Origin: Alphaproteobacteria bacterium | Lineage (GTDB): Bacteria; Pseudomonadota; Alphaproteobacteria; Rs-D84; CACZYB01 | Direction: 5' to 3' | Assembly: GCA_009785175.1 (NCBI GenBank) | Contig: WQWV01000023.1 | Coordinates: 1-14,980 of the forward strand | Length of the DNA stretch: 14,980 nt | Shown here: positions 505 through 13,536 of the stretch, one piece after another | Layout of the letters: every line of letters starts with the position of its first letter | Numbering within the stretch: the first letter of the stretch is position 1 | The notes under the pieces: generated by a model | Seen by the model: the letters and a program-made list of their open reading frames with translations, nothing else | Told to the model about the DNA's origin: nothing | Databases searched by the model: none | Translations under genes and position numbers: made by a program

Positions 505-533
505 ATTATAAGTTGCTGCTTTGGGCAAGTCAA
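505..533 (-). promoter_or_regulatory. sigma70-type promoter for the CYTH gene, predicted leaderless
   Basis: On the minus strand: TTGACT (528-533), 17-nt spacer, TATAAT (505-510), 6 nt (499-504), then ATG (496-498). No SD is present. Confidence 0.45.
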
Positions 534-544
534 GGGGACGCTTT

Positions 545-594
545 ACTTCATCGCGCTATCGCGATATCATGATATCACACTATCGTGATGAAGT
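545..594. repeat. Palindromic element A (ACTTCATC ... GATGAAGT arms, inner GATATCATGATATC perfect palindrome)
   Basis: 8-bp perfect inverted arms at 545-552 and 587-594. The inner part contains the 14-bp perfect palindrome GATATCATGATATC (564-577) and a CACACTATCG block shared with element B at 6073-6116. It lies between the divergent CYTH and truB promoters. Confidence 0.5.
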
Positions 595-639
595 GTGTTG
601 TGATTTTTCCCCATATTATCAATATATTAGGAAATCGCG

Positions 640-668
640 TTGATTTTGTGGGTTTTGCGCATTATAAT
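640..668 (+). promoter_or_regulatory. sigma70-type promoter for truB, predicted leaderless
   Basis: TTGATT (640-645), 17-nt spacer, TATAAT (663-668), 6 nt, ATG at 675. No SD is present. Confidence 0.5.
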
Positions 669-674
669 TCTAAA

Positions 675-1661
675 ATGCTCAACGGTTTTATCAATTTTTA
701 CAAGGAATCGGGGCTGTCCTCGAACGATGCGCTTTACCGTATAAAACGCCTGCTTTTTCCGGAGTTCGGAAAGGTCAAAATCGGGTTTGTCGGGACGCTT
801 GACCCGTTGGCCGAGGGGGTTTTGCCAATCGCGCTTGGGGAGGCTACCAAATTATTGCCGTATATCACGGATGGCCGAAAAACTTATGTTTTCAATATAA
901 AGTTCGGGGCGGAAACTACCACTGCGGACAGGGGTGGGGAGGTGGTTGCGACGTCCGATAAAATCCCTATGCGCGACGAGATTTTGGCGGCTGTTGCGAG
1001 TTTCCGTGGTGCGATTACCCAAGTTCCGCCTAAATACAGCGCTATACAAATCGGCGGGCGGCGGGCGTATGACCTTGCGCGCGAGGGTGTGGAATTCGAA
1101 ATTAAATCGCGGTCTAACTTTGTGCATGAGTTTGAATTGTTGGGGCAAGCACCCTACAGCCCAAAGGGCTCCGCGCGCTCCGCCGCCCCCACGCTGGACG
1201 CGCGCGGTATACACCGCTTGCCGCCCAGCTCGGCGTCGCTTGCTGGAACAGAGTGCGAGTGGCAATTCCGCATAACCGCCGACACAGGCTTTTACGTCCG
1301 TTCGATGGCGTGCGATTTGGCGCGTGCGGTCGGTTCGCTTGGCTATGCCTCATATATATATAGGGAGGCGTCCGGGGCGTTTGAGGCGGATACTGCAATA
1401 TCGCTTGACAAGTTGGCAAAAATGTTTGAGAATACGGCAAAACCTGATGCACGAGATTTTATTTTGGATTTGTGCTTCCCTCTGAACGGCATCTTGGAGG
1501 AGAAGATCAGCGAAGAGGTCGCTGTCCGATTACGACACGGAATGTCCGTGGAATATGTCGGCTTGGACGGAATTCGCAAAGTAATCCTTAATGGTTCTTT
1601 GGTCGCTATCGCGGAAATTCGCGATGGTAGAATGTATCCGGTGCGCGTAATAAACAACTAA
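675..1661 (+). CDS. truB: tRNA pseudouridine(55) synthase TruB
   Basis: The ORF-track 585..1661 frame is trimmed to the internal ATG at 675 (MLNGFINFYKESGLSSNDAL...). That start matches the canonical TruB N-terminus and sits 6 nt after a TATAAT. The catalytic motif GFVGTLDPLAEGVLPIALGEATK (the TruB HTGTLDPLATGVL motif) is present. truB-rpsO-pnp synteny supports the call. Confidence 0.85.
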   Translation: MLNGFINFYKESGLSSNDALYRIKRLLFPEFGKVKIGFVGTLDPLAEGVLPIALGEATKLLPYITDGRKTYVFNIKFGAETTTADRGGEVVATSDKIPMRDEILAAVASFRGAITQVPPKYSAIQIGGRRAYDLAREGVEFEIKSRSNFVHEFELLGQAPYSPKGSARSAAPTLDARGIHRLPPSSASLAGTECEWQFRITADTGFYVRSMACDLARAVGSLGYASYIYREASGAFEADTAISLDKLAKMFENTAKPDARDFILDLCFPLNGILEEKISEEVAVRLRHGMSVEYVGLDGIRKVILNGSLVAIAEIRDGRMYPVRVINN

Positions 1662-1663
1662 AT

Positions 1664-1689
1664 GGATTCCGGGTCAGGCCCGGAATGAC
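1664..1689 (+). repeat. Hairpin element copy 1 (GGATTCCGGG-tcagg-CCCGGAAT followed by GAC)
   Basis: 8-bp stem 1666-1673 / 1679-1686 with a 5-nt loop, followed by GAC. It starts 5 nt after the truB stop and ends 21 nt before the rpsO ATG. Same family as the copies at 11530-11555 and 11660-11684. Confidence 0.5.
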
Positions 1690-1709
1690 GAAAGAAAAAG
1701 GTAAAAACT

Positions 1710-1961
1710 ATGGCAGACAAAAAGAAACTCGCTCTTGCAAAACACGACAAGGACACCGGATCGGCCGCAGTGCAGATCGAAATCCTGACGGCCCGCATAC
1801 TCGGCCTTGAGGGTCATTTCAAAAATGCGCCCAAGGACAAGGCTTCGCACCGCGGCCTTATCACGATGGTAAACAAGCGCAAGAAGCTTCTTGCATACCT
1901 TGCGAAAACCGACAAGGCGACATACGAAGAAACGCTTAAAAAACTAAACCTCCGCAAATAA
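1710..1961 (+). CDS. rpsO: 30S ribosomal protein S15
   Basis: 83 aa. The DTGSAAVQIEILTARILGLEGHFKNAPKDKASHRGL stretch matches the S15 consensus (DTGSxEVQvAlLTeRI...H.kD.hSRRGL). SD AAAGG lies 9 nt upstream. Position between truB and pnp is canonical. Confidence 0.9.
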   Translation: MADKKKLALAKHDKDTGSAAVQIEILTARILGLEGHFKNAPKDKASHRGLITMVNKRKKLLAYLAKTDKATYEETLKKLNLRK

Positions 1962-1978
1962 GCGGAACAACAACAAAT

Positions 1979-2056
1979 GCCCCCGGCTGGGCAATGTTGG
2001 AATATCAAGCGCTAGGCCTAGCGTTTCATCTTCTGACATAGTGCGCGGCCGGGGGC
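1979..2056 (+). promoter_or_regulatory. Structured rpsO-pnp intergenic leader (long-range stem enclosing a 14-bp perfect palindrome)
   Basis: GCCCCCGGC (1979-1987) is the exact reverse complement of GCCGGGGGC (2048-2056). Inside lies the perfect palindrome CGCTAGGCCTAGCG (2010-2023), followed by the U-rich TTTCATCTTC. It sits directly upstream of the pnp SD, as expected for an rpsO terminator/attenuator plus an RNase III-type pnp leader stem. Confidence 0.4.
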
Positions 2057-2076
2057 GAAACAGAAAGGAAAAAACT

Positions 2077-4206
2077 ATGTTTGGAATATTTGGAAAAAAA
2101 TCCACATCTGAAACATCAATGTTCAACATCACCGAAAAGCGCATGAACTGGGAAGGCAAGGAACTTGTCCTTCAGACCGGGAAAATCGCGCGTCAAGCGA
2201 CCGGAGCCGTCATGGCCACATACGGAGAAACAACCGTGCTTGCCACCGTCGTCGCCAACAAGGAGCCGAAACCCGACCAGGGCTTCTTCCCTTTGACGGT
2301 CGATTACCAGGAAAAATTCAGCTCGGCCGGTAAAATCCCCGGATCGTTCAAGCGCCGCGAAGGCCAGCCGTCGACCGACGAAGTGCTTACCGCGCGTCTT
2401 ATCGACCGGCCTGTGCGCCCCCTGTTCCCTGATAACTTCAAGAACGAGGTTCAGGTCGTCGCAACCGTATTCAATTATGACAAGCAGAACAAGCCGGACA
2501 TCTTGGCCATGGTCGCTTGCTCGGCCGCGTTGGCGATTTCCGGCGTGCCGTTCGCAGGACCCATCGGTGCCGCGCGCGTCGCATACAAGGATAAGAAATA
2601 CATCATCAACCCGACTTTGTCCGAACTTGTCGACACCGAATTGAATTTGGTTGTCGCAGGAACCAAGGACGGCGTGCTTATGGTAGAATCCGAAGCGAAT
2701 CAGTTGCCCGAAGACGTAATGCTTGGCGCGGTCGAGGCTGGATTCAAATCCTTCCAGGCCGTAATCAAACTTATCAACGAGATGGTTGCCGAAGCAGGCA
2801 AGGCGAAATGGGAGCTTCCGGCCGTTAACGAAAACTTCCCCGTAGTGGAGAAGATCGTGCGCGATGCGATCACCGCGGATCTTCAGGCCGCTTTTGGTAT
2901 CAAGGAAAAGCAGGCCCGCACCGAAGCCGTCCACGCCGCTCAGAAAAAAGCGCGCGAGAAAGTCGCCGAGATTACCAACACCACCGGCGAGCTTAACCAA
3001 TTCGCAGCGGTCGCATACGAAAACTTGTCCGCGGAAATCCTTCGCGGAGCAGTGTTGGCCGGAGAGCCCCGCATCGACGGACGCGACACTAAGACCGTGC
3101 GTCCCATCGAGTGCGAAGTCGGAATATTCAGCCGCAACCACGGCTCGGCGTTGTTCACACGCGGCGAAACGCAAGCTATCGTTTCCGCCACCATTGGTGT
3201 CAAGGACGACGAACAACTCCTTGACGATTTGGACGGCGTTCGCAACGATCCCTATATGCTCCACTACAACTTCCCTCCGTTCTCGGTCGGCGAAGTCGGA
3301 CGTATCGGCGCGCCCAAGCGTCGCGAAATCGGACACGGCAAGCTTGCCTTCCGCGCAAACCGCGCCGTGTATCCTTCGTTCGAGGAATTCCCCTATACTA
3401 TCCGTATCCTTGCCGACATAACCGAATCGAACGGTTCGTCGTCAATGGCCACGACCTGCGGCACTTCGCTTGCCATGATGGACGCGGGTATTCCCGTCAA
3501 GGCCGCCGTTGCCGGTATCGCAATGGGCCTTATCAAGGAAGGCGAAAAGTATGTTATCCTTTCCGACATCATGGGCGACGAAGACCACCTTGGCGACATG
3601 GATTTCAAGGTTGCTGGAACGTCCGCCGGTATCACCGCGCTTCAGATGGATTTGAAAATCACTTCGATTAGCTTCGACATCATGAAGAAGGCGCTTGCCC
3701 AGGCGTGCGACGGACGCAAGCATATCCTTGGCGAAATGGCGAAGGCTATCAAGGAACCCCGCAAGGAATTGTCCGCATACGCGCCCACAATCCGCTCTAT
3801 CACCATCAATCCCAAGAAGATCCGCGAGGTCATCGGCTCGGGCGGTTCGGTCATCAAGGCTTTGACCGAAAAGACCCAGACGAAAATCGACATCACGGAC
3901 GACGGCGTCATAAAAATCGCCGGAACCGACGGCGACAACATTCAGCGCGCGATCGACCTTATCATGGAAATCGCCGCCGAGCCCGAAGTAGGCCAGCTCT
4001 TTGACGCGAAGGTTATCAAGCTTCTTGACATCGGCGCAATCGTTTCGTTCGGCAAGAACTTCGAGGGCATGGTCCACGTTTCCGAAATCGACAACAAGCG
4101 TATCGAAAAGCCTTCGGACGTCTTGAAGGTCGGCGAGATTGTGAAAGTGATTGTCGTCGAACCTAAAGACGGTAAGACAAGGCTTTCGATTAAAAAGGCT
4201 AAGTAA
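2077..4206 (+). CDS. pnp: Polyribonucleotide nucleotidyltransferase (PNPase)
   Basis: Two RNase PH-like domains, then a KH motif ([15 protein letters not shown]) and a C-terminal S1 domain ([20 protein letters not shown]...GMVHVSEI). Start is set at ATG 2077, 7 nt after SD AAAGGAA. The track's GTG at 2041 is rejected. The homology-based start MFNITEK at 2119 lacks an SD and remains an alternative. Confidence 0.9.
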
Positions 4207-4228
4207 TTCGTTTTTCACGAGTTGAGGA

Positions 4229-4257
4229 ATCCCCGGTTTCGGCCGGGGATTTTTTTT
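4229..4257 (+). terminator. Rho-independent terminator of pnp
   Basis: ATCCCCGG (4229-4236), loop TTTCGG, CCGGGGAT (4243-4250), then a run of 7-8 T. Confidence 0.8.
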
Positions 4258-4383
4258 ACTAACGCATATATGACAGCGCGCCGCAGGCGGCCAGTGCTCG
4301 CCCCCACCCGGGCGCTGGCTCAAACAAGTTTTCGCGCCCCCGGGGCTCGACTGTCCGCCGTTTTCTTTTCCTTAAAATATCCC

Positions 4384-4413
4384 TTGACAAAATATTGCGG
4401 GGGGGGGTAGGTT
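4384..4413 (+). promoter_or_regulatory. Promoter module M1 with a G9 tract in the spacer (candidate phase-variable promoter of the flotillin-like gene)
   Basis: Perfect TTGACA (4384-4389), then an 18-nt spacer containing GGGGGGGGG (4399-4407), then TAGGTT (4408-4413). A leader with SD AAGGA follows 8 nt before ATG 4451. The module is near-identical to M2 at 6136-6165. Confidence 0.5.
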
Positions 4414-4450
4414 AGTCTATAGGTCTAATAAAATAAAAAGGAAAAACACC

Positions 4451-6001
4451 ATGGAACTTATTCAATATATAATGCTTGGAGGCGCATCCGCCGCAACCCT
4501 TACCGCTGCGATCGTCGGTTATAAAATCTTGAAATTGCGCACGATCGTGCCTGCCGATATGGTGCACATTGTCCAAAGCGTAAAGAATACCACATCGTAT
4601 GGTAAAGACCAAAAGGACGAGAATAAAAAAGACACCGGAAACGTCTATTATAAATGGCCTCAGATGATCCCGGTTCTTGGTGTCGTGGTCAAGCAGTTGC
4701 CGGTTTCCAACTTTGATATCCGCATGGATAATTTCGAGGCGTATGACAAGGATCGTGTTCCCTTCAACGTCGATGTTTCCACCTTCTTCCGCATAGCCGA
4801 TACCAACAAAGCGGCCGAGCGCGTCGCCTCGTTCGACGAACTGAGAAACCACCTTACCGTAATGGTGCACGGCTCGGTCCGTTCCATCATGGCGAACGCG
4901 AAACTCGAGGAGATCATGGAGCAGCGCTCGACCTATGGAGAAAAGTTCACGAAGGAAGTCGAAGACCAGCTCAAGGCCTGGGGTGTCGAGCCTGTCAAGA
5001 ACATCGAGCTTATGGACATACGCGATACGAAAGAGTCCACCGCCATCGCGAACATAATGAAAAAGAAGCAGTCCGAAATCGCAAAGGAATCACGCACTAC
5101 CGTCGCCCTTAACAACAAAGAGGCGGATATGGCCGAAATAGACGCCGAACGCGAGGTCGAGGTAAAGCGCGCCGAAAAAGAACAGTTGGTCGGCGAGCGC
5201 AATGCCGAGAAGAATCGCGTTATCGGTATCGCCAACGAACAGCAAAAACAGTTGGTTGCCGAACAGGAAAAAATCACTGCGGAAAAGGATCTCGAAATCA
5301 CAAGGGTCAAAGAAATAACAAACGCCGAAATCGCGCAGAATAAAAGTATCATCGAAGCCGAAACCACCAGGAAGACTGCGGTCATCAAAGCCGACCAGGA
5401 CAAGGAAACCATGAAGATCAAGGCCGAGGCGGATAAGGAAAAGATGAGGATAGACACCGACGCAAAAAAATACGAGACGGAAACCATCGCCGATGCCGAC
5501 AAGCTTGCCAAGGAAAAGAACGCAAGCGCCCACCAGACCATGGAACTTGCCAAGGCCGCCGGTATAAAGGCGACTGGTGAAGCGTCGGCCGATGCCGAAA
5601 AGATGCTCCAGCTTGCCCGTGTTGTCGCGGAAAAGGAGTTGGCGGAAACCATCGGCTCGAACAAGGAGTATCAGGAATACCTGATCAACCTTGAGAAGGT
5701 CAAAAAGAATGCCGAAGTTGCGATCAAGACCGCCGAATACAACTCGGAAGTCGGAAAGGAACAGGCCAAAAACTTGAATAAAGCCGATATAAAAATCATC
5801 ACGAATACTTCTGATGGAAATGTCGGTGGCGGTGTAAGTAAGGTCATGGATTTGTTCTCAAGCAAGGGGGGCCAGGCCGTCAACGGAATGTTGGAAACTT
5901 TGTCCAATACCGATATGGGCAAGGGACTGCTTGAAAAAATCGGTGTTATAAACAAAGGTAAGCAAGACCAAGTAAAAGGCGCGCTTGATAAACAGAGATA
6001 A
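4451..6001 (+). CDS. Flotillin-like SPFH/band-7 membrane protein (FloT/YuaG/YqiK type)
   Basis: 516 aa. N-terminal TM helix (LIQYIMLGGASAATLTAAIVGYKIL). SPFH domain (...FNVDVSTFFRIADTNKAAERVASF...VEPVKNIELMDIRD). Long EA/K-rich coiled-coil. Gly/Ser-rich C-terminal tail (IKIITNTSDGNVGGG...), resembling the B. subtilis FloT architecture. SD AAGGA lies upstream. Confidence 0.85.
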   Translation: MELIQYIMLGGASAATLTAAIVGYKILKLRTIVPADMVHIVQSVKNTTSYGKDQKDENKKDTGNVYYKWPQMIPVLGVVVKQLPVSNFDIRMDNFEAYDKDRVPFNVDVSTFFRIADTNKAAERVASFDELRNHLTVMVHGSVRSIMANAKLEEIMEQRSTYGEKFTKEVEDQLKAWGVEPVKNIELMDIRDTKESTAIANIMKKKQSEIAKESRTTVALNNKEADMAEIDAEREVEVKRAEKEQLVGERNAEKNRVIGIANEQQKQLVAEQEKITAEKDLEITRVKEITNAEIAQNKSIIEAETTRKTAVIKADQDKETMKIKAEADKEKMRIDTDAKKYETETIADADKLAKEKNASAHQTMELAKAAGIKATGEASADAEKMLQLARVVAEKELAETIGSNKEYQEYLINLEKVKKNAEVAIKTAEYNSEVGKEQAKNLNKADIKIITNTSDGNVGGGVSKVMDLFSSKGGQAVNGMLETLSNTDMGKGLLEKIGVINKGKQDQVKGALDKQR

Positions 6002-6024
6002 TATTTGCCCTTGTTAAAGAAAAT

Positions 6025-6050
6025 CCCCCCTCTTCGGAGGGGATTTTTTT
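6025..6050 (+). terminator. Rho-independent terminator of the flotillin-like gene
   Basis: CCCCTC (6027-6032), TTCG tetraloop, GAGGGG (6037-6042), then T7 (6044-6050). Confidence 0.8.
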
Positions 6051-6072
6051 GTAGTATATTATAAACTCGATT

Positions 6073-6122
6073 CACTTCATCACACTATCGCGCTAGTGTG
6101 ATAGTGTAATGAAGTGTTTTTT
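6073..6122. repeat. Palindromic element B (CACTTCATCACACTATC ... GATAGTGTaATGAAGTG) followed by T6
   Basis: 17-bp inverted arms at 6073-6089 and 6100-6116 with one mismatch, a 10-nt loop, then TTTTTT (6117-6122). Outer arms and the CACACTATCG block match element A (545-594). It ends 19 nt upstream of the M2 -35. Confidence 0.5.
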
Positions 6123-6135
6123 CATAAAACAATGC

Positions 6136-6165
6136 TTGACAAAATCCTCCGGGGGGGGGTAAGTT
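6136..6165 (+). promoter_or_regulatory. Promoter module M2 with a G9 tract in the spacer (candidate phase-variable promoter of the small Cys-rich gene trio)
   Basis: TTGACA (6136-6141), an 18-nt spacer containing G9 (6151-6159), TAAGTT (6160-6165), then a leader with SD AAAGGAAA before ATG 6200. The M1/M2 alignment is CTTGACAAAAT..CGGGGGGGGGTA.GTT.AGTCTAT...TAATAAA..AAAGGAAA. Confidence 0.5.
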
Positions 6166-6199
6166 TAGTCTATTCGTTTAATAAACAAAGGAAATAGAA

Positions 6200-6451
6200 A
6201 TGAAATGTATTTATGACGACAACAAAGAATGTAAATCAAACGGAGAGTGCTATGACACGGTCTGCATGGACATGAGCACGTTTAATATGAAAAATTTCAA
6301 AGAAAAAGTAAATGCCGAGCTTGCCGAGCGGGCAAAAGGTTCGGGGGAAAAGTATGCTCCGATAGGCGGCTTGATCCTTAGGTCCGGTCATGTCTTCTCG
6401 GAAATGTATCAGGCGATCTGCTGTGTTAAAGCTTTTGGCAACCAAAAATAG
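6200..6451 (+). CDS. Small cysteine-rich protein, paralog 1 (unknown family)
   Basis: 83 aa. SD AAAGGAAA at 6187-6194. No signal peptide. N-terminal MKCIYDDNKEC...C...C motif, central GSGEKYAPIGG, and C-terminal MYQAICCVKAFG. All three are shared with the next two ORFs. Confidence 0.65.
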   Translation: MKCIYDDNKECKSNGECYDTVCMDMSTFNMKNFKEKVNAELAERAKGSGEKYAPIGGLILRSGHVFSEMYQAICCVKAFGNQK

Positions 6452-6500
6452 GAAATAAAAATGAAGTGGATGCCCGACGGGCGATAGGGGGAAGATAATT

Positions 6501-6737
6501 ATGATATGTATCTATAGCGACAGCAAAGCCTGTGTAAATAACAGAATGTGTTATAAGATAGTTTCGCAGATAGGAAGCCTTGATCCGGATAGTTTCCAGG
6601 GTAAGGTCAATGAAGTCATTATAAGGAAGCAGGGGAACTATGTCCTTAACGGAGGAGTGGCGGCGTGTGCGGAATCAGAAAACAAACATGCCTGTATGTT
6701 CCAAGCGCTTCGTTGCGTAAATGTGCGTCAAGGATAG
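6501..6737 (+). CDS. Small cysteine-rich protein, paralog 2
   Basis: 78 aa. SD GGGGGAAG upstream. MICIYSDSKAC..C N-motif, KQGNYVLNGG centre, and MFQALRCVNV C-motif are homologous to paralogs 1 and 3. Confidence 0.6.
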   Translation: MICIYSDSKACVNNRMCYKIVSQIGSLDPDSFQGKVNEVIIRKQGNYVLNGGVAACAESENKHACMFQALRCVNVRQG

Positions 6738-6743
6738 TTAGTT

Positions 6744-6983
6744 ATGCGATGCAAATTCGACGATTACAAAGAATGCAACGCCGGACCCGAGCAGAAGTGC
6801 CGCGAGATCGTTCAAGCGGGAACCAAATCAAGCCTTGTCAGCAATGTAAGAAAAGTGGTTGCCAATAATATCGAGGGCAGCGGCGAAAAATACGTTGCTG
6901 TGGGCAAAGCCAAGCAGACGGGCAGCTCGCAATGGTATCAGTGGATTTATTGCCTGAAGAATCCGGGCGCGTACGACAGGTAG
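6744..6983 (+). CDS. Small cysteine-rich protein, paralog 3
   Basis: 79 aa. SD AGGATAG upstream. It starts 7 nt after paralog 2 ends. MRCKFDDYKEC N-motif, GSGEKYVAVG centre (identical core to paralog 1), and YQWIYCLKNPG C-motif. Confidence 0.65.
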   Translation: MRCKFDDYKECNAGPEQKCREIVQAGTKSSLVSNVRKVVANNIEGSGEKYVAVGKAKQTGSSQWYQWIYCLKNPGAYDR

Positions 6984-7193: not shown

Positions 7194-7237
7194 ATTGATA
7201 TTTTTAAGGGGGGGGGCGCCTTCGGCGTAGCTATAAA
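7194..7237 (+). promoter_or_regulatory. Degenerate third copy of the G9 promoter module (TTGATA ... G9 ... TAGCTATAAAT)
   Basis: TTGATA (7194-7199), 8 nt, GGGGGGGGG (7208-7216), then CGCCTTCGGCG replacing the TAGGT of M1/M2, then TAGCTATAAAT. No plus-strand gene lies downstream, only a hairpin and then lon in antisense. Confidence 0.3.
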
Positions 7238-9798: not shown

Positions 9799-9804
9799 GG
9801 TGAT

Positions 9805-9838
9805 AGTATAGGGAAGTTTTTACGGGAATTCAAGGGGG
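9805..9838 (-). promoter_or_regulatory. lon promoter: sigma32-like CCCCCTTGAA-N15-CCCTATACT that also reads as sigma70 TTGAAT-17-TATACT, predicted leaderless
   Basis: Minus strand: CCCCCTTGAA (9829-9838), then CCCTATACT ending at 9805, 6 nt, then ATG (9796-9798). No SD is present. Confidence 0.45.
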
Positions 9839-9840
9839 CT

Positions 9841-10772: not shown

Positions 10773-11562
10773 GCTTGGAATTATCGCGGGCGATAAATCG
10801 CTTCCCTCCACGCTTATAAATTTTCTTAAATCCCAGGGGGCGGACGATACCGTTGTTGCGGGCATAATCGGTTCATACGAAGGGGTTGCGGACGCGCGGT
10901 TCAGGCTTGCCGAGCTTCCGAAACTGATTGCATATTTCAAGCGTCTTGGCGTAGAGCGTGTAGTGCTTGCCGGCGGCGTACATACTGCCAAGGTGGGATT
11001 TTCTTTGAAGTTGATCGAGTTCGCGCTGAGGTTGCTTTTTATGAAAAACCGCTATGACGGCGTGTTGCGCCTTGTCGTGCGTGAAATCGAAAAAAACGGC
11101 ATGAAGGTCGTCGGGATCCAAGAGATTATGCCTCAGTTGCTTATTGCCGAAGGAGCTATGGGTGCGATTGCTCCGTCGGAATTGCAGACGGCCGAAATCA
11201 ATAGAGCATGGCGGCGAGCGCGGGAATTTGCCTCTACCGATGTCGGGCAATCTTGCGTGGAGGTTGGCGGAGTCGTTGTTGCGACCGAGAAGTTTGCCGG
11301 CACGAACGAGCTTATAGGGCGGGCGGGAATGCGGCCCGCAGCGGTGCTTTTGAAAATGCCGAAACCGGCTCAGGAAATGCGCGCGGACGTGCCGGTGATC
11401 GGCGTGGATACAGTGGAGCTGTGTGCGGCTCGGGGCTATGCCGGAATTGCGGTCGAGGCCGGGCGCGTAATTGTCGAGGATAGGGCGGCGACGGTGGCGG
11501 CGGCTGATAAAAATAAAATCTTTATAGTTGGATTCCGGCTCGGGGCCGGAATGACAGGGTGA
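10765..11562 (+). CDS. lpxI: UDP-2,3-diacylglucosamine hydrolase LpxI (DUF1009 family)
   Basis: 265 aa. Overlaps the lpxA stop by 8 nt (ATGTCTAG), indicating translational coupling. The N-terminus MSRLGIIAGDKSLP is LpxI-like. Position immediately after lpxA matches the LpxI gene order known from Caulobacter. Confidence 0.65.
   Translation: MSRLGIIAGDKSLPSTLINFLKSQGADDTVVAGIIGSYEGVADARFRLAELPKLIAYFKRLGVERVVLAGGVHTAKVGFSLKLIEFALRLLFMKNRYDGVLRLVVREIEKNGMKVVGIQEIMPQLLIAEGAMGAIAPSELQTAEINRAWRRAREFASTDVGQSCVEVGGVVVATEKFAGTNELIGRAGMRPAAVLLKMPKPAQEMRADVPVIGVDTVELCAARGYAGIAVEAGRVIVEDRAATVAAADKNKIFIVGFRLGAGMTG
11530..11555 (+). repeat. Hairpin element copy 2 (GGATTCCGGC-tcggg-GCCGGAAT followed by GAC), overlapping the lpxI 3' end
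   Basis: 8-bp stem 11532-11539 / 11545-11552, 5-nt loop, then GAC. It encodes the last residues of the LpxI ORF (FRLGAGMTG). Confidence 0.45.
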
Positions 11563-12483: not shown

Positions 12484-12510
12484 GCAAGCTGTGCTTGCGC
12501 TCGGTTTCTT
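12484..12510 (+). terminator. Weak candidate terminator after the tRNA pair
   Basis: GCAAGC-TGT-GCTTGC hairpin (12484-12498), then GCTCGGTTTCTTCTT. The stem is short and the U-tract is interrupted. Confidence 0.2.
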
Positions 12511-12542
12511 CTTGGGCGCGCCATTTTCAAAAGGAATTAAAA

Positions 12543-12614
12543 ATGCGAAGAGTGGAACATATGATGCCTTGGCGCCGCGTGTTTTCATTGCCAGAAAAAT
12601 TGCCGGTAATATGA
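12543..12614 (+). CDS. Possible 23-codon upstream ORF translationally coupled to the kinase gene (MRRVEHMMPWRRVFSLPEKLPVI)
   Basis: SD AAGGA (12531-12535) is 7 nt before ATG 12543. Its stop TGA (12612-12614) overlaps the downstream ATG (12611-12613) as ATGA. The downstream gene has no SD of its own. Confidence 0.25.
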   Translation: MRRVEHMMPWRRVFSLPEKLPVI

Positions 12615-13231
12615 AACGCAAAAAGCCTTTTGTAATTGGAATTACCGGAAAGACCGGGAGCGGCAAGACCTTTGTCGCCGAACTGCTTGGCGAAATGACC
12701 GGGTTCGAGGTGATCCACTGCGACAAGTATCTTAACAACATCATTCTTATAGAACCGATACGGAAATTATTGGAACTTAGGCATGGAATGGATTTGGACA
12801 TCGGACCCGGCGACGAGGCGGGGCGAAAAAATATCGACGGTAAAATTCCATATATGGTTGCGAACATGAGCAGGGCGGAGGCTCGGCTGTTCACGCTTGT
12901 CATCGACATTATGCTTTGCGACGAGCTGATAAAAAGAAGGGGCGAACCGGTGATAGTCGACGGCCTTTATATACCGAAATTTTACTTTTCAAAGGAATTC
13001 GCCAGCCTTGCCTATATCACAAGTGCCGGCGGGACCGCGGCAAGGCACGAAAAGATCGCGCGGCGCCATCCCGGCCTTCCCTTTGAGGTGATAAAGAAAG
13101 CCGACGACCTTTGCAACGGAGTGTTCGGATATAAAAATATCAAATACGACAGGACATTCAGCAACGACTATACGAACGTTCCAGCCGGGCTCGAGCAGTA
13201 TGCGGAAAAAATCCTACGGGCCGCGAGATAG
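12611..13231 (+). CDS. coaE: Dephospho-CoA kinase-like P-loop kinase
   Basis: The ORF-track 12491 (GTG) frame is trimmed to its only in-frame ATG. MKRKKPFVIGITGKTGSGKTFVAELLGEMTGFEVIHCDKY matches the CoaE N-terminus (xIGLTGGIGSGKST...G..VIDAD). Length is ~206 aa. C-terminal conservation is weaker. Confidence 0.55.
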   Translation: MKRKKPFVIGITGKTGSGKTFVAELLGEMTGFEVIHCDKYLNNIILIEPIRKLLELRHGMDLDIGPGDEAGRKNIDGKIPYMVANMSRAEARLFTLVIDIMLCDELIKRRGEPVIVDGLYIPKFYFSKEFASLAYITSAGGTAARHEKIARRHPGLPFEVIKKADDLCNGVFGYKNIKYDRTFSNDYTNVPAGLEQYAEKILRAAR

Positions 13232-13245
13232 CGGAAATTTCGCCG

Positions 13246-13536
13246 TCAATCATCTTTCAAATAACACTTCATCGTAGTATCATCATGGGTGAAAATTGCT
13301 TCGTCGCCCTTGCCGTGGAATTCGGCGGTGTCATTCGTGTATTTAGCGCCGGAGGCCGAGGGGACGCGTTCAAGCCCCCTGAAAAACTCATACGAATTGC
13401 GGCCGGTTTTAAGCAGCACATCGGCGCCGTCTTCGCGCGGCCTTAGCTCGAGCTTTGTATCGGCACAATCATATATGATTTTTTCTGATGTCAAAGCGCA
13501 GGAGGCAAGGCCCATGACCAAAAGTATTTTTTTCAT
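13246..13536 (-). CDS. mliC: MliC/PliC-family lysozyme-inhibitor lipoprotein
   Basis: 96 aa. Signal peptide with lipobox LASC. IIYDCADTKLEL...VPSASGAKYTNDTAEFHGKGDEAIFTHDDTTMKCY follows the MliC pattern (Y.C......L......SASGARY.dG.yE.w.KGDEA.L......C) with the two conserved Cys. Confidence 0.7.
   Translation of the reverse strand: MKKILLVMGLASCALTSEKIIYDCADTKLELRPREDGADVLLKTGRNSYEFFRGLERVPSASGAKYTNDTAEFHGKGDEAIFTHDDTTMKCYLKDD

Follow-up and report, generated by a model that had tools for sequence, protein, structure and literature searches.

Two modular palindromic arrays of 8-bp units beside promoters in an uncultured termite-gut alphaproteobacterium

The DNA analysed here (hereafter the window) comprises 14,980 nt of an 18.3-kb contig from an uncultured termite-gut alphaproteobacterium. 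It carries two short palindromic elements, A and B, which lie in intergenic regions beside promoters, and the question that this locus raises is what kind of element such a pair represents. The original prediction had treated them as two copies of one palindrome and offered three explanations, i.e., the operator of a dimeric regulator with variable spacing, a mobile palindrome resembling repetitive extragenic palindromes (REP) or miniature inverted-repeat transposable elements (MITEs), or a DNA-uptake or recombination site. We find that the pair is real and restricted to this lineage, though of an ordinary kind: A and B are modular palindromic arrays, both made of 8-bp units, an anatomy that is new compared with the earlier reading. 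The two elements are:

545..594, no strand, element A, 50 bp, an array of 8-bp units
6073..6116, no strand, element B, 44 bp, an array of 8-bp units

Both elements use the same type of unit, RCRC-TATC, which is 8 bp long, in addition to an end unit, ACTTCATC. A consists of five direct units (including ACTTCATC) and one inverted end unit; B has two units per side, facing each other. Unit orientation is thus mostly direct in A and inverted in B. The units read as follows:

545-552, A, end unit ACTTCATC
553-560, A, GCGCTATC
561-568, A, GCGATATC
569-576, A, ATGATATC
577-584, A, ACACTATC, followed by GT
587-594, A, inverted end unit GATGAAGT
6074-6081, B, end unit ACTTCATC, preceded by C
6082-6089, B, ACACTATC
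6090-6099, B, centre, GCGCT followed by AGTGT
6100-6107, B, GATAGTGT
6108-6115, B, AATGAAGT, followed by G

The four direct units in the inner part of A place TATC at 557, 565, 573 and 581, an exact 8-bp spacing, and Tandem Repeats Finder reports a period of 8 with 3.4 copies over 550-576. The perfect palindrome previously picked out in A is present (14 nt, GATATCATGATATC, 563-576), but the interior is better described as the four direct units. Viewed as inverted repeats, A has 25-nt arms that are 80% complementary, with five mismatches, and B has 22-nt arms that are 86% complementary. The five mismatches of A sit where the units of its right half are direct instead of inverted, so what has been kept is the unit and its phase and not the stem. 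Regular unit phasing in A comes at the cost of hairpin pairing. Where the arms differ, it is mostly by purine transitions within RCRC; TATC does not vary. The best-kept part of both elements is the outermost 8-9 bp, the inner part being freer.

The sequences that A and B have in common, namely the ACTTCAT(C) / (G)ATGAAGT end arms and an inner CACACTATCG block, occur far above chance. ACTTCATC is found four times against 0.36 expected and CACACTATCG, with at most one mismatch, four times against 0.42 expected; neither count was reached in any of 200 shuffles. The outer arms are ACTTCATC (545-552) and GATGAAGT (587-594) in A, and CACTTCATC (6073-6081) and AATGAAGTG (6108-6116) in B. They had been called identical in the two elements, which is true of the left arms; the right arm of B agrees at 7/8 bases. 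The extension of the B arms to 17 bp with one mismatch is correct, as is the claim of a common inner block within rearranged interiors: in A, CACACTATCG adjoins the right arm, in B the left. The left halves of A and B are 78% identical, and the right halves are alike only at the arm. A 22-nt position weight matrix (PWM) built from the four arms gave 30.8 and 28.3 bits for the arms of A and 33.6 and 29.8 bits for those of B, with a best score of 14.4 bits in 30 shuffles as the null. The PWM also matches A and B at offsets of +/-8 nt.

The surroundings of the arrays, from Pfam matches and a tRNA search, are given by the gene order and by three promoter-like regions:

CYTH gene (minus strand, start at 498), A, truB (675-1661), rpsO, pnp, terminator, flotillin gene (4451-6001), terminator, B
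after B, three orphan Cys-rich paralogs (6200-6983), lon (minus), lpxA, lpxI, tRNA-Val, tRNA-Leu, gene for an MliC-like lipoprotein (minus)
505..533, minus, promoter-like site of CYTH, TTGACT-17-TATAAT, 11/12 matches, ATG at 498
640..668, plus, promoter-like site of truB, TTGATT-17-TATAAT, 10/12 matches, ATG at 675
6117..6199, plus, promoter and 5' untranslated region module M2, consisting of an A/T-rich part with T6, TTGACA (6136-6141), TAAGTT (6160-6165) and a Shine-Dalgarno leader

Both arrays end upstream of a -35 hexamer, and neither overlaps the -35 or -10. From the left end of A to the -35 of CYTH there are 11 nt, and from its right end to the -35 of truB 45 nt; B lies 19 nt from the -35 of M2 (TTGACA at 6136-6141), as predicted. 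The start codons of CYTH and truB begin 7 nt downstream of the -10 hexamer, as would suit leaderless mRNAs, in agreement with the placement of A between two divergent leaderless promoters. Start codons 6-7 nt past the -10 are found for CYTH, truB, lon and lpxA, a geometry that appears to indicate leaderless mRNAs and to support the promoter calls. Gene callers put the start of truB at ATG 588, within the right arm of A, which adds 29 residues (588-677). The TruB_N domain starts near ATG 675 and, given the -10 geometry, the public start of truB is probably too long.

Judging by its sequence, M2 drives the three small Cys-rich paralogs. Its 18-nt spacer ends in G9 (6151-6159), and it is homologous to a region at ~4366-4450 upstream of flotillin, the two forming a module of ~85 nt with 79% identity over a 48-nt core. 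The similarity starts at ~6118, directly 3' of B, and reaches the ATG, and both copies have TTGACA, an 18-nt spacer with a terminal G9, a -10 of TAGGTT or TAAGTT and a Shine-Dalgarno leader. A homopolymeric G9 in a promoter spacer is the textbook arrangement for slippage-driven phase variation. Another G9 tract, the third, is present at 7208-7216, and GGGGGGGG is the contig's most over-represented 8-mer (6 against 0.1 expected). A hand alignment in which the right flank of A shared the upstream region of M2 was not supported by MAFFT.

What could read such units? Two plasmid systems are informative. The operator OF of ParG has eight ACTC boxes with 4-bp spacers, direct and inverted, each bound by one dimer; on TP228 the arrays OF and parH comprise 8-12 boxes that span 60-100 bp at a promoter and tolerate a rearranged geometry (PMC3130281). 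A and B resemble OF and parH in that degenerate 4-bp boxes with 4-bp spacers give an 8-bp period and occur in both orientations. However, ParG sites are ACTC with AT-rich spacers and lie beside their own plasmid gene, whereas A and B are TATC with RCRC spacers, lie beside chromosomal housekeeping genes with no ribbon-helix-helix (RHH) gene within the contig, are shorter (5.5-6 units) and are bracketed by inverted end units. The omega sites of pSM19035 are contiguous 7-bp repeats in mixed orientation, and full activity takes four or more of them (PMC9499535). With omega (ParB-pSM, pSM19035/inc18) A and B have in common contiguous short repeats, mixed orientation and arrays that vary in unit number, but the omega period is 7 bp on a Firmicute plasmid, while that of A and B is 8 bp, with no omega-like gene on the contig. 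The omega heptad is WATCACW, and omega arrays lie at three promoters within a few kb; ATCAC/ATCGC recurs in A and B, a recurrence that we take to be a likeness to this heptad. An open reading frame (ORF) at 12491-13231 has a weak Zeta_toxin-like match (E = 0.003, below the Pfam cut-off) and gives no evidence for a link to omega.

We tentatively read A and B as arrays on which a small dimeric DNA-binding protein of ParG/omega-like type would bind cooperatively, a reading that is possible but falls short of an even chance. The two would be versions of one multi-unit platform for binding on double-stranded DNA, with the protein encoded outside the 18 kb. Each 8-bp unit, i.e., a core of TATC (TCATC in the end unit) and a 4-bp RCRC spacer, would take one dimer, and neighbouring dimers would bind cooperatively, coating 44-50 bp. 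The end of the array, 11 nt (CYTH) or 19 nt (small paralogs) before the -35, would fall in the zone of the UP element and the C-terminal domain of the RNA polymerase alpha subunit, where occupancy could raise or lower initiation, possibly also at truB 45 nt away. The units with their phasing, orientations and termini, and the adjacency to promoters, are observed features; we infer from them the binding of a protein, its identity and the sign of regulation. The earlier suggestion of a dimeric operator survives in restated form, as an array of several units with 8-bp periodicity that can face either way, while its variable spacing does not.

Several observations support the array reading. The same units recur in A and B in another number and orientation, both arrays abut promoter-like sites with convincing start-codon geometry, and A contains four contiguous units at a fixed 8-bp period, where an RHH-type multi-box operator would have four or more at 7-8 bp. 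On our analysis, recognition of units in double-stranded DNA appears to fit best. Other points weigh against it. None of the ORFs of the 18.3-kb contig has an RHH, helix-turn-helix or other DNA-binding Pfam domain, and the AlphaFold model of the small paralogs is beta-alpha-beta-beta (pLDDT 63.5, a low confidence that makes it uninformative) and not the beta-alpha-alpha of RHH proteins. Only two full copies are known, both within 18.3 kb. Unlike in most repressor operators, the -35 and -10 hexamers are not overlapped; the CYTH promoter is near consensus, so an activator is not needed, and the near-identical promoter module of flotillin lacks the element. At 44-50 bp with 17-25-bp arms, the elements are long for a transcription-factor site, and their absence from relatives means that they are not a conserved regulon site. 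Furthermore, four-unit ATCAC arrays with an 8-bp period have 89 matches in IMG/VR against a rough chance estimate of well below one; that many of these are back-to-back suggests candidate long tandem repeats, and an 8-bp period also appears to arise via simple replication slippage.

A more specific version, which we consider unlikely, would make A and B the operators of a new chromosomal regulator that, like a ParG/omega-type RHH protein, reads 8-bp TATC units either way and couples CYTH and truB-rpsO-pnp to the orphan Cys-rich operon. If true, this coupling of a housekeeping RNA-processing locus to a lineage-specific operon would mean that a partition-type multi-box operator is put to use on a chromosome and not on a plasmid. 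As operators, the elements would also offer a simple case of multi-box, orientation-tolerant recognition at chromosomal housekeeping promoters instead of plasmid partition loci, and a starting point for studying gene control in an uncultured alphaproteobacterial lineage of the termite gut in which leaderless mRNAs are widespread. The main alternative to an operator is a small dispersed repeat.

In this case, A and B would be members of a family of short palindromic repeats dispersed by a transposase or through recombination, with numerous copies elsewhere, incidental closeness to promoters and the terminal 8-9 bp as the recognised ends. We regard this as somewhat unlikely. The good conservation of those outermost base pairs over a freer interior is what such a family would show, and both copies are intergenic, at a density of two (plus a marginal solitary arm) per 18.3 kb. 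Other small intergenic repeat families occur on the same contig, so the genome appears repeat-rich. REP and REPIN elements are short, imperfect, intergenic palindromes that number from tens to hundreds per genome, are mobilised by REP-associated tyrosine transposases (RAYTs), are lineage-specific and form hairpins, and A and B are likewise short, imperfect, intergenic, lineage-specific and hairpin-capable. They do not have the form of a 20-40-nt imperfect palindrome with a GT[AG]G head, however: their ends are (C/T)ACTTCATC, with no head of GTAG or GTGG type, their half-elements are not palindromes, and A lies between divergent promoters with direct repeats in its interior. An element that has given up full hairpin complementarity and kept the phase of its units is also a poor fit to a REP recognised as a hairpin, and no transposase or RAYT gene is present in the 18 kb.

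Likeness to a MITE goes as far as terminal inverted repeats (termini identical over 7-9 bp, imperfect arms of 22-25 bp), a less conserved interior and the lack of coding capacity. A check for target-site duplications, proposed with the original prediction, found none flanking A (GCTTT to the left, GTGTT to the right) or B (CGATT to the left, TTTTT to the right). The interiors are not collinear and the lengths differ (50 against 44 bp), and 44-50 bp is below the size of described MITEs. These points weaken the case for a classical MITE, and the loss of complementarity in A weakens hairpin-based roles, whether as REP or as terminator.

The search for further copies bears on both possibilities. 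A PWM scan of the contig found no further full copy and no other intergenic region with the element, and returned one candidate:

13265..13286, plus, possible solitary arm CACTTCATCGTAGTATCATCAT, 18.4 bits against a shuffle maximum of 14.4

Apart from it, nothing on the contig came up to the range of the shuffles. Given the post-hoc choice of pattern, the score of the candidate is significant only marginally. The arm sits in the 3' coding end of the MliC-like gene (minus, 13246-13536), where it encodes ...TTMKCY..., and it has no inverted partner nearby. The Cys presumably aligns with the conserved C-terminal Cys of E. coli MliC, and the arm is probably chance, or at least no insertion.

Turning to relatives, metagenome-assembled genomes (MAGs) named "Rickettsiales bacterium" supply the closest PNPase homologues, at 78%, 73% and 68% identity. 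Four relatives contributed 62 kb around truB-rpsO-pnp, in which there was no CACTTCATC palindrome and almost no long palindrome at all; the absence of the element is what a young lineage-specific repeat would show. There truB is preceded by mutS or unannotated genes, and the only CYTH gene at one of these loci (L138) is ~6.5 kb away, beside recA. These changed upstream neighbours of truB place A at a synteny breakpoint, and B lies between lineage-specific genes (flotillin and the paralogs); both positions would suit a dispersed repeat.

Pattern scans of IMG/VR gave chance-level or non-palindromic matches only. A metagenome scan with ACTTCATCNNNNTATCN{12,34}ATGAAGTG gave 47 matches, judged to be at chance level and mostly non-palindromic, none with the internal structure of A or B; this negative is weak, since the collection does not include the window's own contig. 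The chance level of both scans counts against a dispersed family, the metagenome part with that same weakness. Look-alikes in the metagenomes were L092, a Bacteroidetes-like rbfA-rpsF intergenic region with inverted ATCAC units at an 8-bp period, and L117/L126. Their homology to A and B is not claimed, as the likeness is mostly forced by the search pattern. L092 (Ga0247843_1002240, 1190-1370) carries two tandem hairpins between divergent rbfA and rpsF-rpsR-rplI, with 8-bp units ATCACTTC, ATCACTCT and ATCACTTT, inverse units GATGAAGT and GATAGGGT, and the exact string ATCACTTCATCAC; its arms mismatch through changes of C to T, with which RNA of the rbfA strand would still form G-U pairs. Comparison of A and B with plasmids by blastn returned nothing significant, and a literature search with the arm sequences returned primer coincidences only. 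To our knowledge, none of NrdR, Fur, Zur, CIRCE, the alphaproteobacterial LexA box, CtrA, Pho boxes, attC and dif fits the elements. As dispersed repeats, A and B would add to the lineage-specific families of REP/MITE-like type and be of use mainly for strain typing and assembly; with either outcome the importance is local and not general.

It is improbable that A and B are functionless by-products, i.e., a short palindromic seed duplicated a single time within this lineage and then altered neutrally by 8-bp slippage. The IMG/VR matches suggest that 8-bp tandem arrays arise readily, and the known copies number only two in 18.3 kb, are lineage-restricted and have no known cognate protein. However, two copies 5.5 kb apart have kept identical termini and an invariant TATC while the spacers diverged, which suggests constraint, and both adjoin promoters.

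A further explanation places the function in RNA, with B as a back-up terminator of flotillin and A as a related hairpin without a terminator role. Evidence on it centres on the region between the flotillin gene and B:

6022..6050, plus, intrinsic terminator of flotillin, AATCCCCCC-TCTTCGG-AGGGGATT and T7, 23 nt upstream of B, seen in a 111-nt fold

B does form a 22-bp stem (-25.8 kcal/mol), followed by U6 on the flotillin strand, and two of the three mismatches in it are G-U wobbles on the plus strand. Its hairpin z-score is strong at -7.6, and those of A are moderate at -3.0 and -4.2. There is also a Thr_leader match of two-hairpin, leader-like form at 6015-6123, sub-threshold at 26 bits against a gathering score of 55, and the Rfam 15 scan gave no family at threshold except two tRNAs. 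The T6 invoked in support of B as a second terminator is indeed directly 3' of B (6117-6122), but it belongs to the promoter module that also stands upstream of flotillin, where no palindrome precedes it. As the canonical terminator with its T7 already lies 23 nt upstream of B, the idea of a second terminator is weak. A, whose interior is not complementary and which has no adjacent U-tract, lies between two divergent leaderless starts with nothing to terminate, so it cannot be a terminator. We consider a role as RNA hairpins highly improbable. The terminator of flotillin is of the same type as that of pnp at 4228-4256, and look-alike terminators also recur on the contig.

The idea of an uptake site is weakly supported. 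Uptake sequences are motifs of 9-12 nt that recur about once per kb throughout a genome, coding regions included. Those of Neisseria type occur as inverted pairs within terminators, and B, with its hairpin and T6, and the over-representation of ATGAAGTG in the contig recall this, whereas A has neither a T-tract nor an upstream transcript. CACTTCAT/ATGAAGTG occurs six times in 18.3 kb against 0.41 expected; this enrichment ranks sixth among 8-mers and is no more extreme than that of several coding-derived ones. Half of the six copies are inside A or B, and of the three isolated ones two are in coding sequence and one in a duplicated gene start. The latter had been proposed as an isolated half-site:

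6444..6471, plus, relic of the ribosome-binding site and start of paralog 1 (6183-6210 against 6444-6471, 82% identity)

ATGAAGTG at 6462-6469 is inside this duplicated start and is therefore not a member of the element family. At 6444-6485 lie the short remains of a fourth small-paralog gene start.

The three tandem paralogous ORFs (6200-6983) encode proteins of 78-83 residues with four invariant Cys and no signal peptide, for which no homologue besides themselves was found among 5.8 billion proteins. The flotillin (SPFH) protein has its closest named homologues, 60-65% identical and non-syntenic, in MAGs of termite-gut Treponema, and a scan of a collection of genome contigs with it found only two distant loci at 47-49% identity. 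That it is closest to Treponema and not to alphaproteobacteria, and is absent beside pnp of relatives, suggests that the gene was acquired horizontally. Over 5700-6600 the GC content drops to 0.40.

The NCBI record of the contig is a MAG with locus tags FWD15_04670-80 and proteins MCL2439773.1 and MCL2439774.1. Copies of the sequence with 100% identity are held in the European Nucleotide Archive (ENA) assembly ERZ27264051 (18,294 nt; L001 and L004) and in Logan under SRR10512954 and SRR5215205. Exact-protein look-ups of S15, paralog 2 and a 189-residue ORF returned only the same strain (100% identical).

Other repeats are found on the contig. A GC-rich repeat with a conserved core of ~70 nt is present at ~4272-4340 and, inverted, at L004:3220-3290, just past the 3' end of the window, both intergenic. 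Its central hairpin shows a compensatory change, GCCAGTGC...GCGCTGGC against GCCAACGC...GCGTTGGC, a possible sign of a structured RNA or of a REP-like element; it has no match in Rfam or IMG/VR. The ATTCCGGG...CCCGGAAT hairpin is present twice. The hairpin TGGATTCCGG(G/C)TC(A/G)GG(C/G)CCGGAATGAC occurs at 1663-1689, directly after truB, and at 11529-11555, at the 3' end of lpxI; the two are 89% identical, have no T-tract and may represent a third family of small repeats. Lastly, lon is apparently leaderless and under a sigma-32-like promoter (9799-9840, minus), CTTGAA-N16-CCTATACT, with its ATG 6 nt later; CCTATACTA is one of the 9-mers most over-represented on the contig, at 3 against 0.03 expected.

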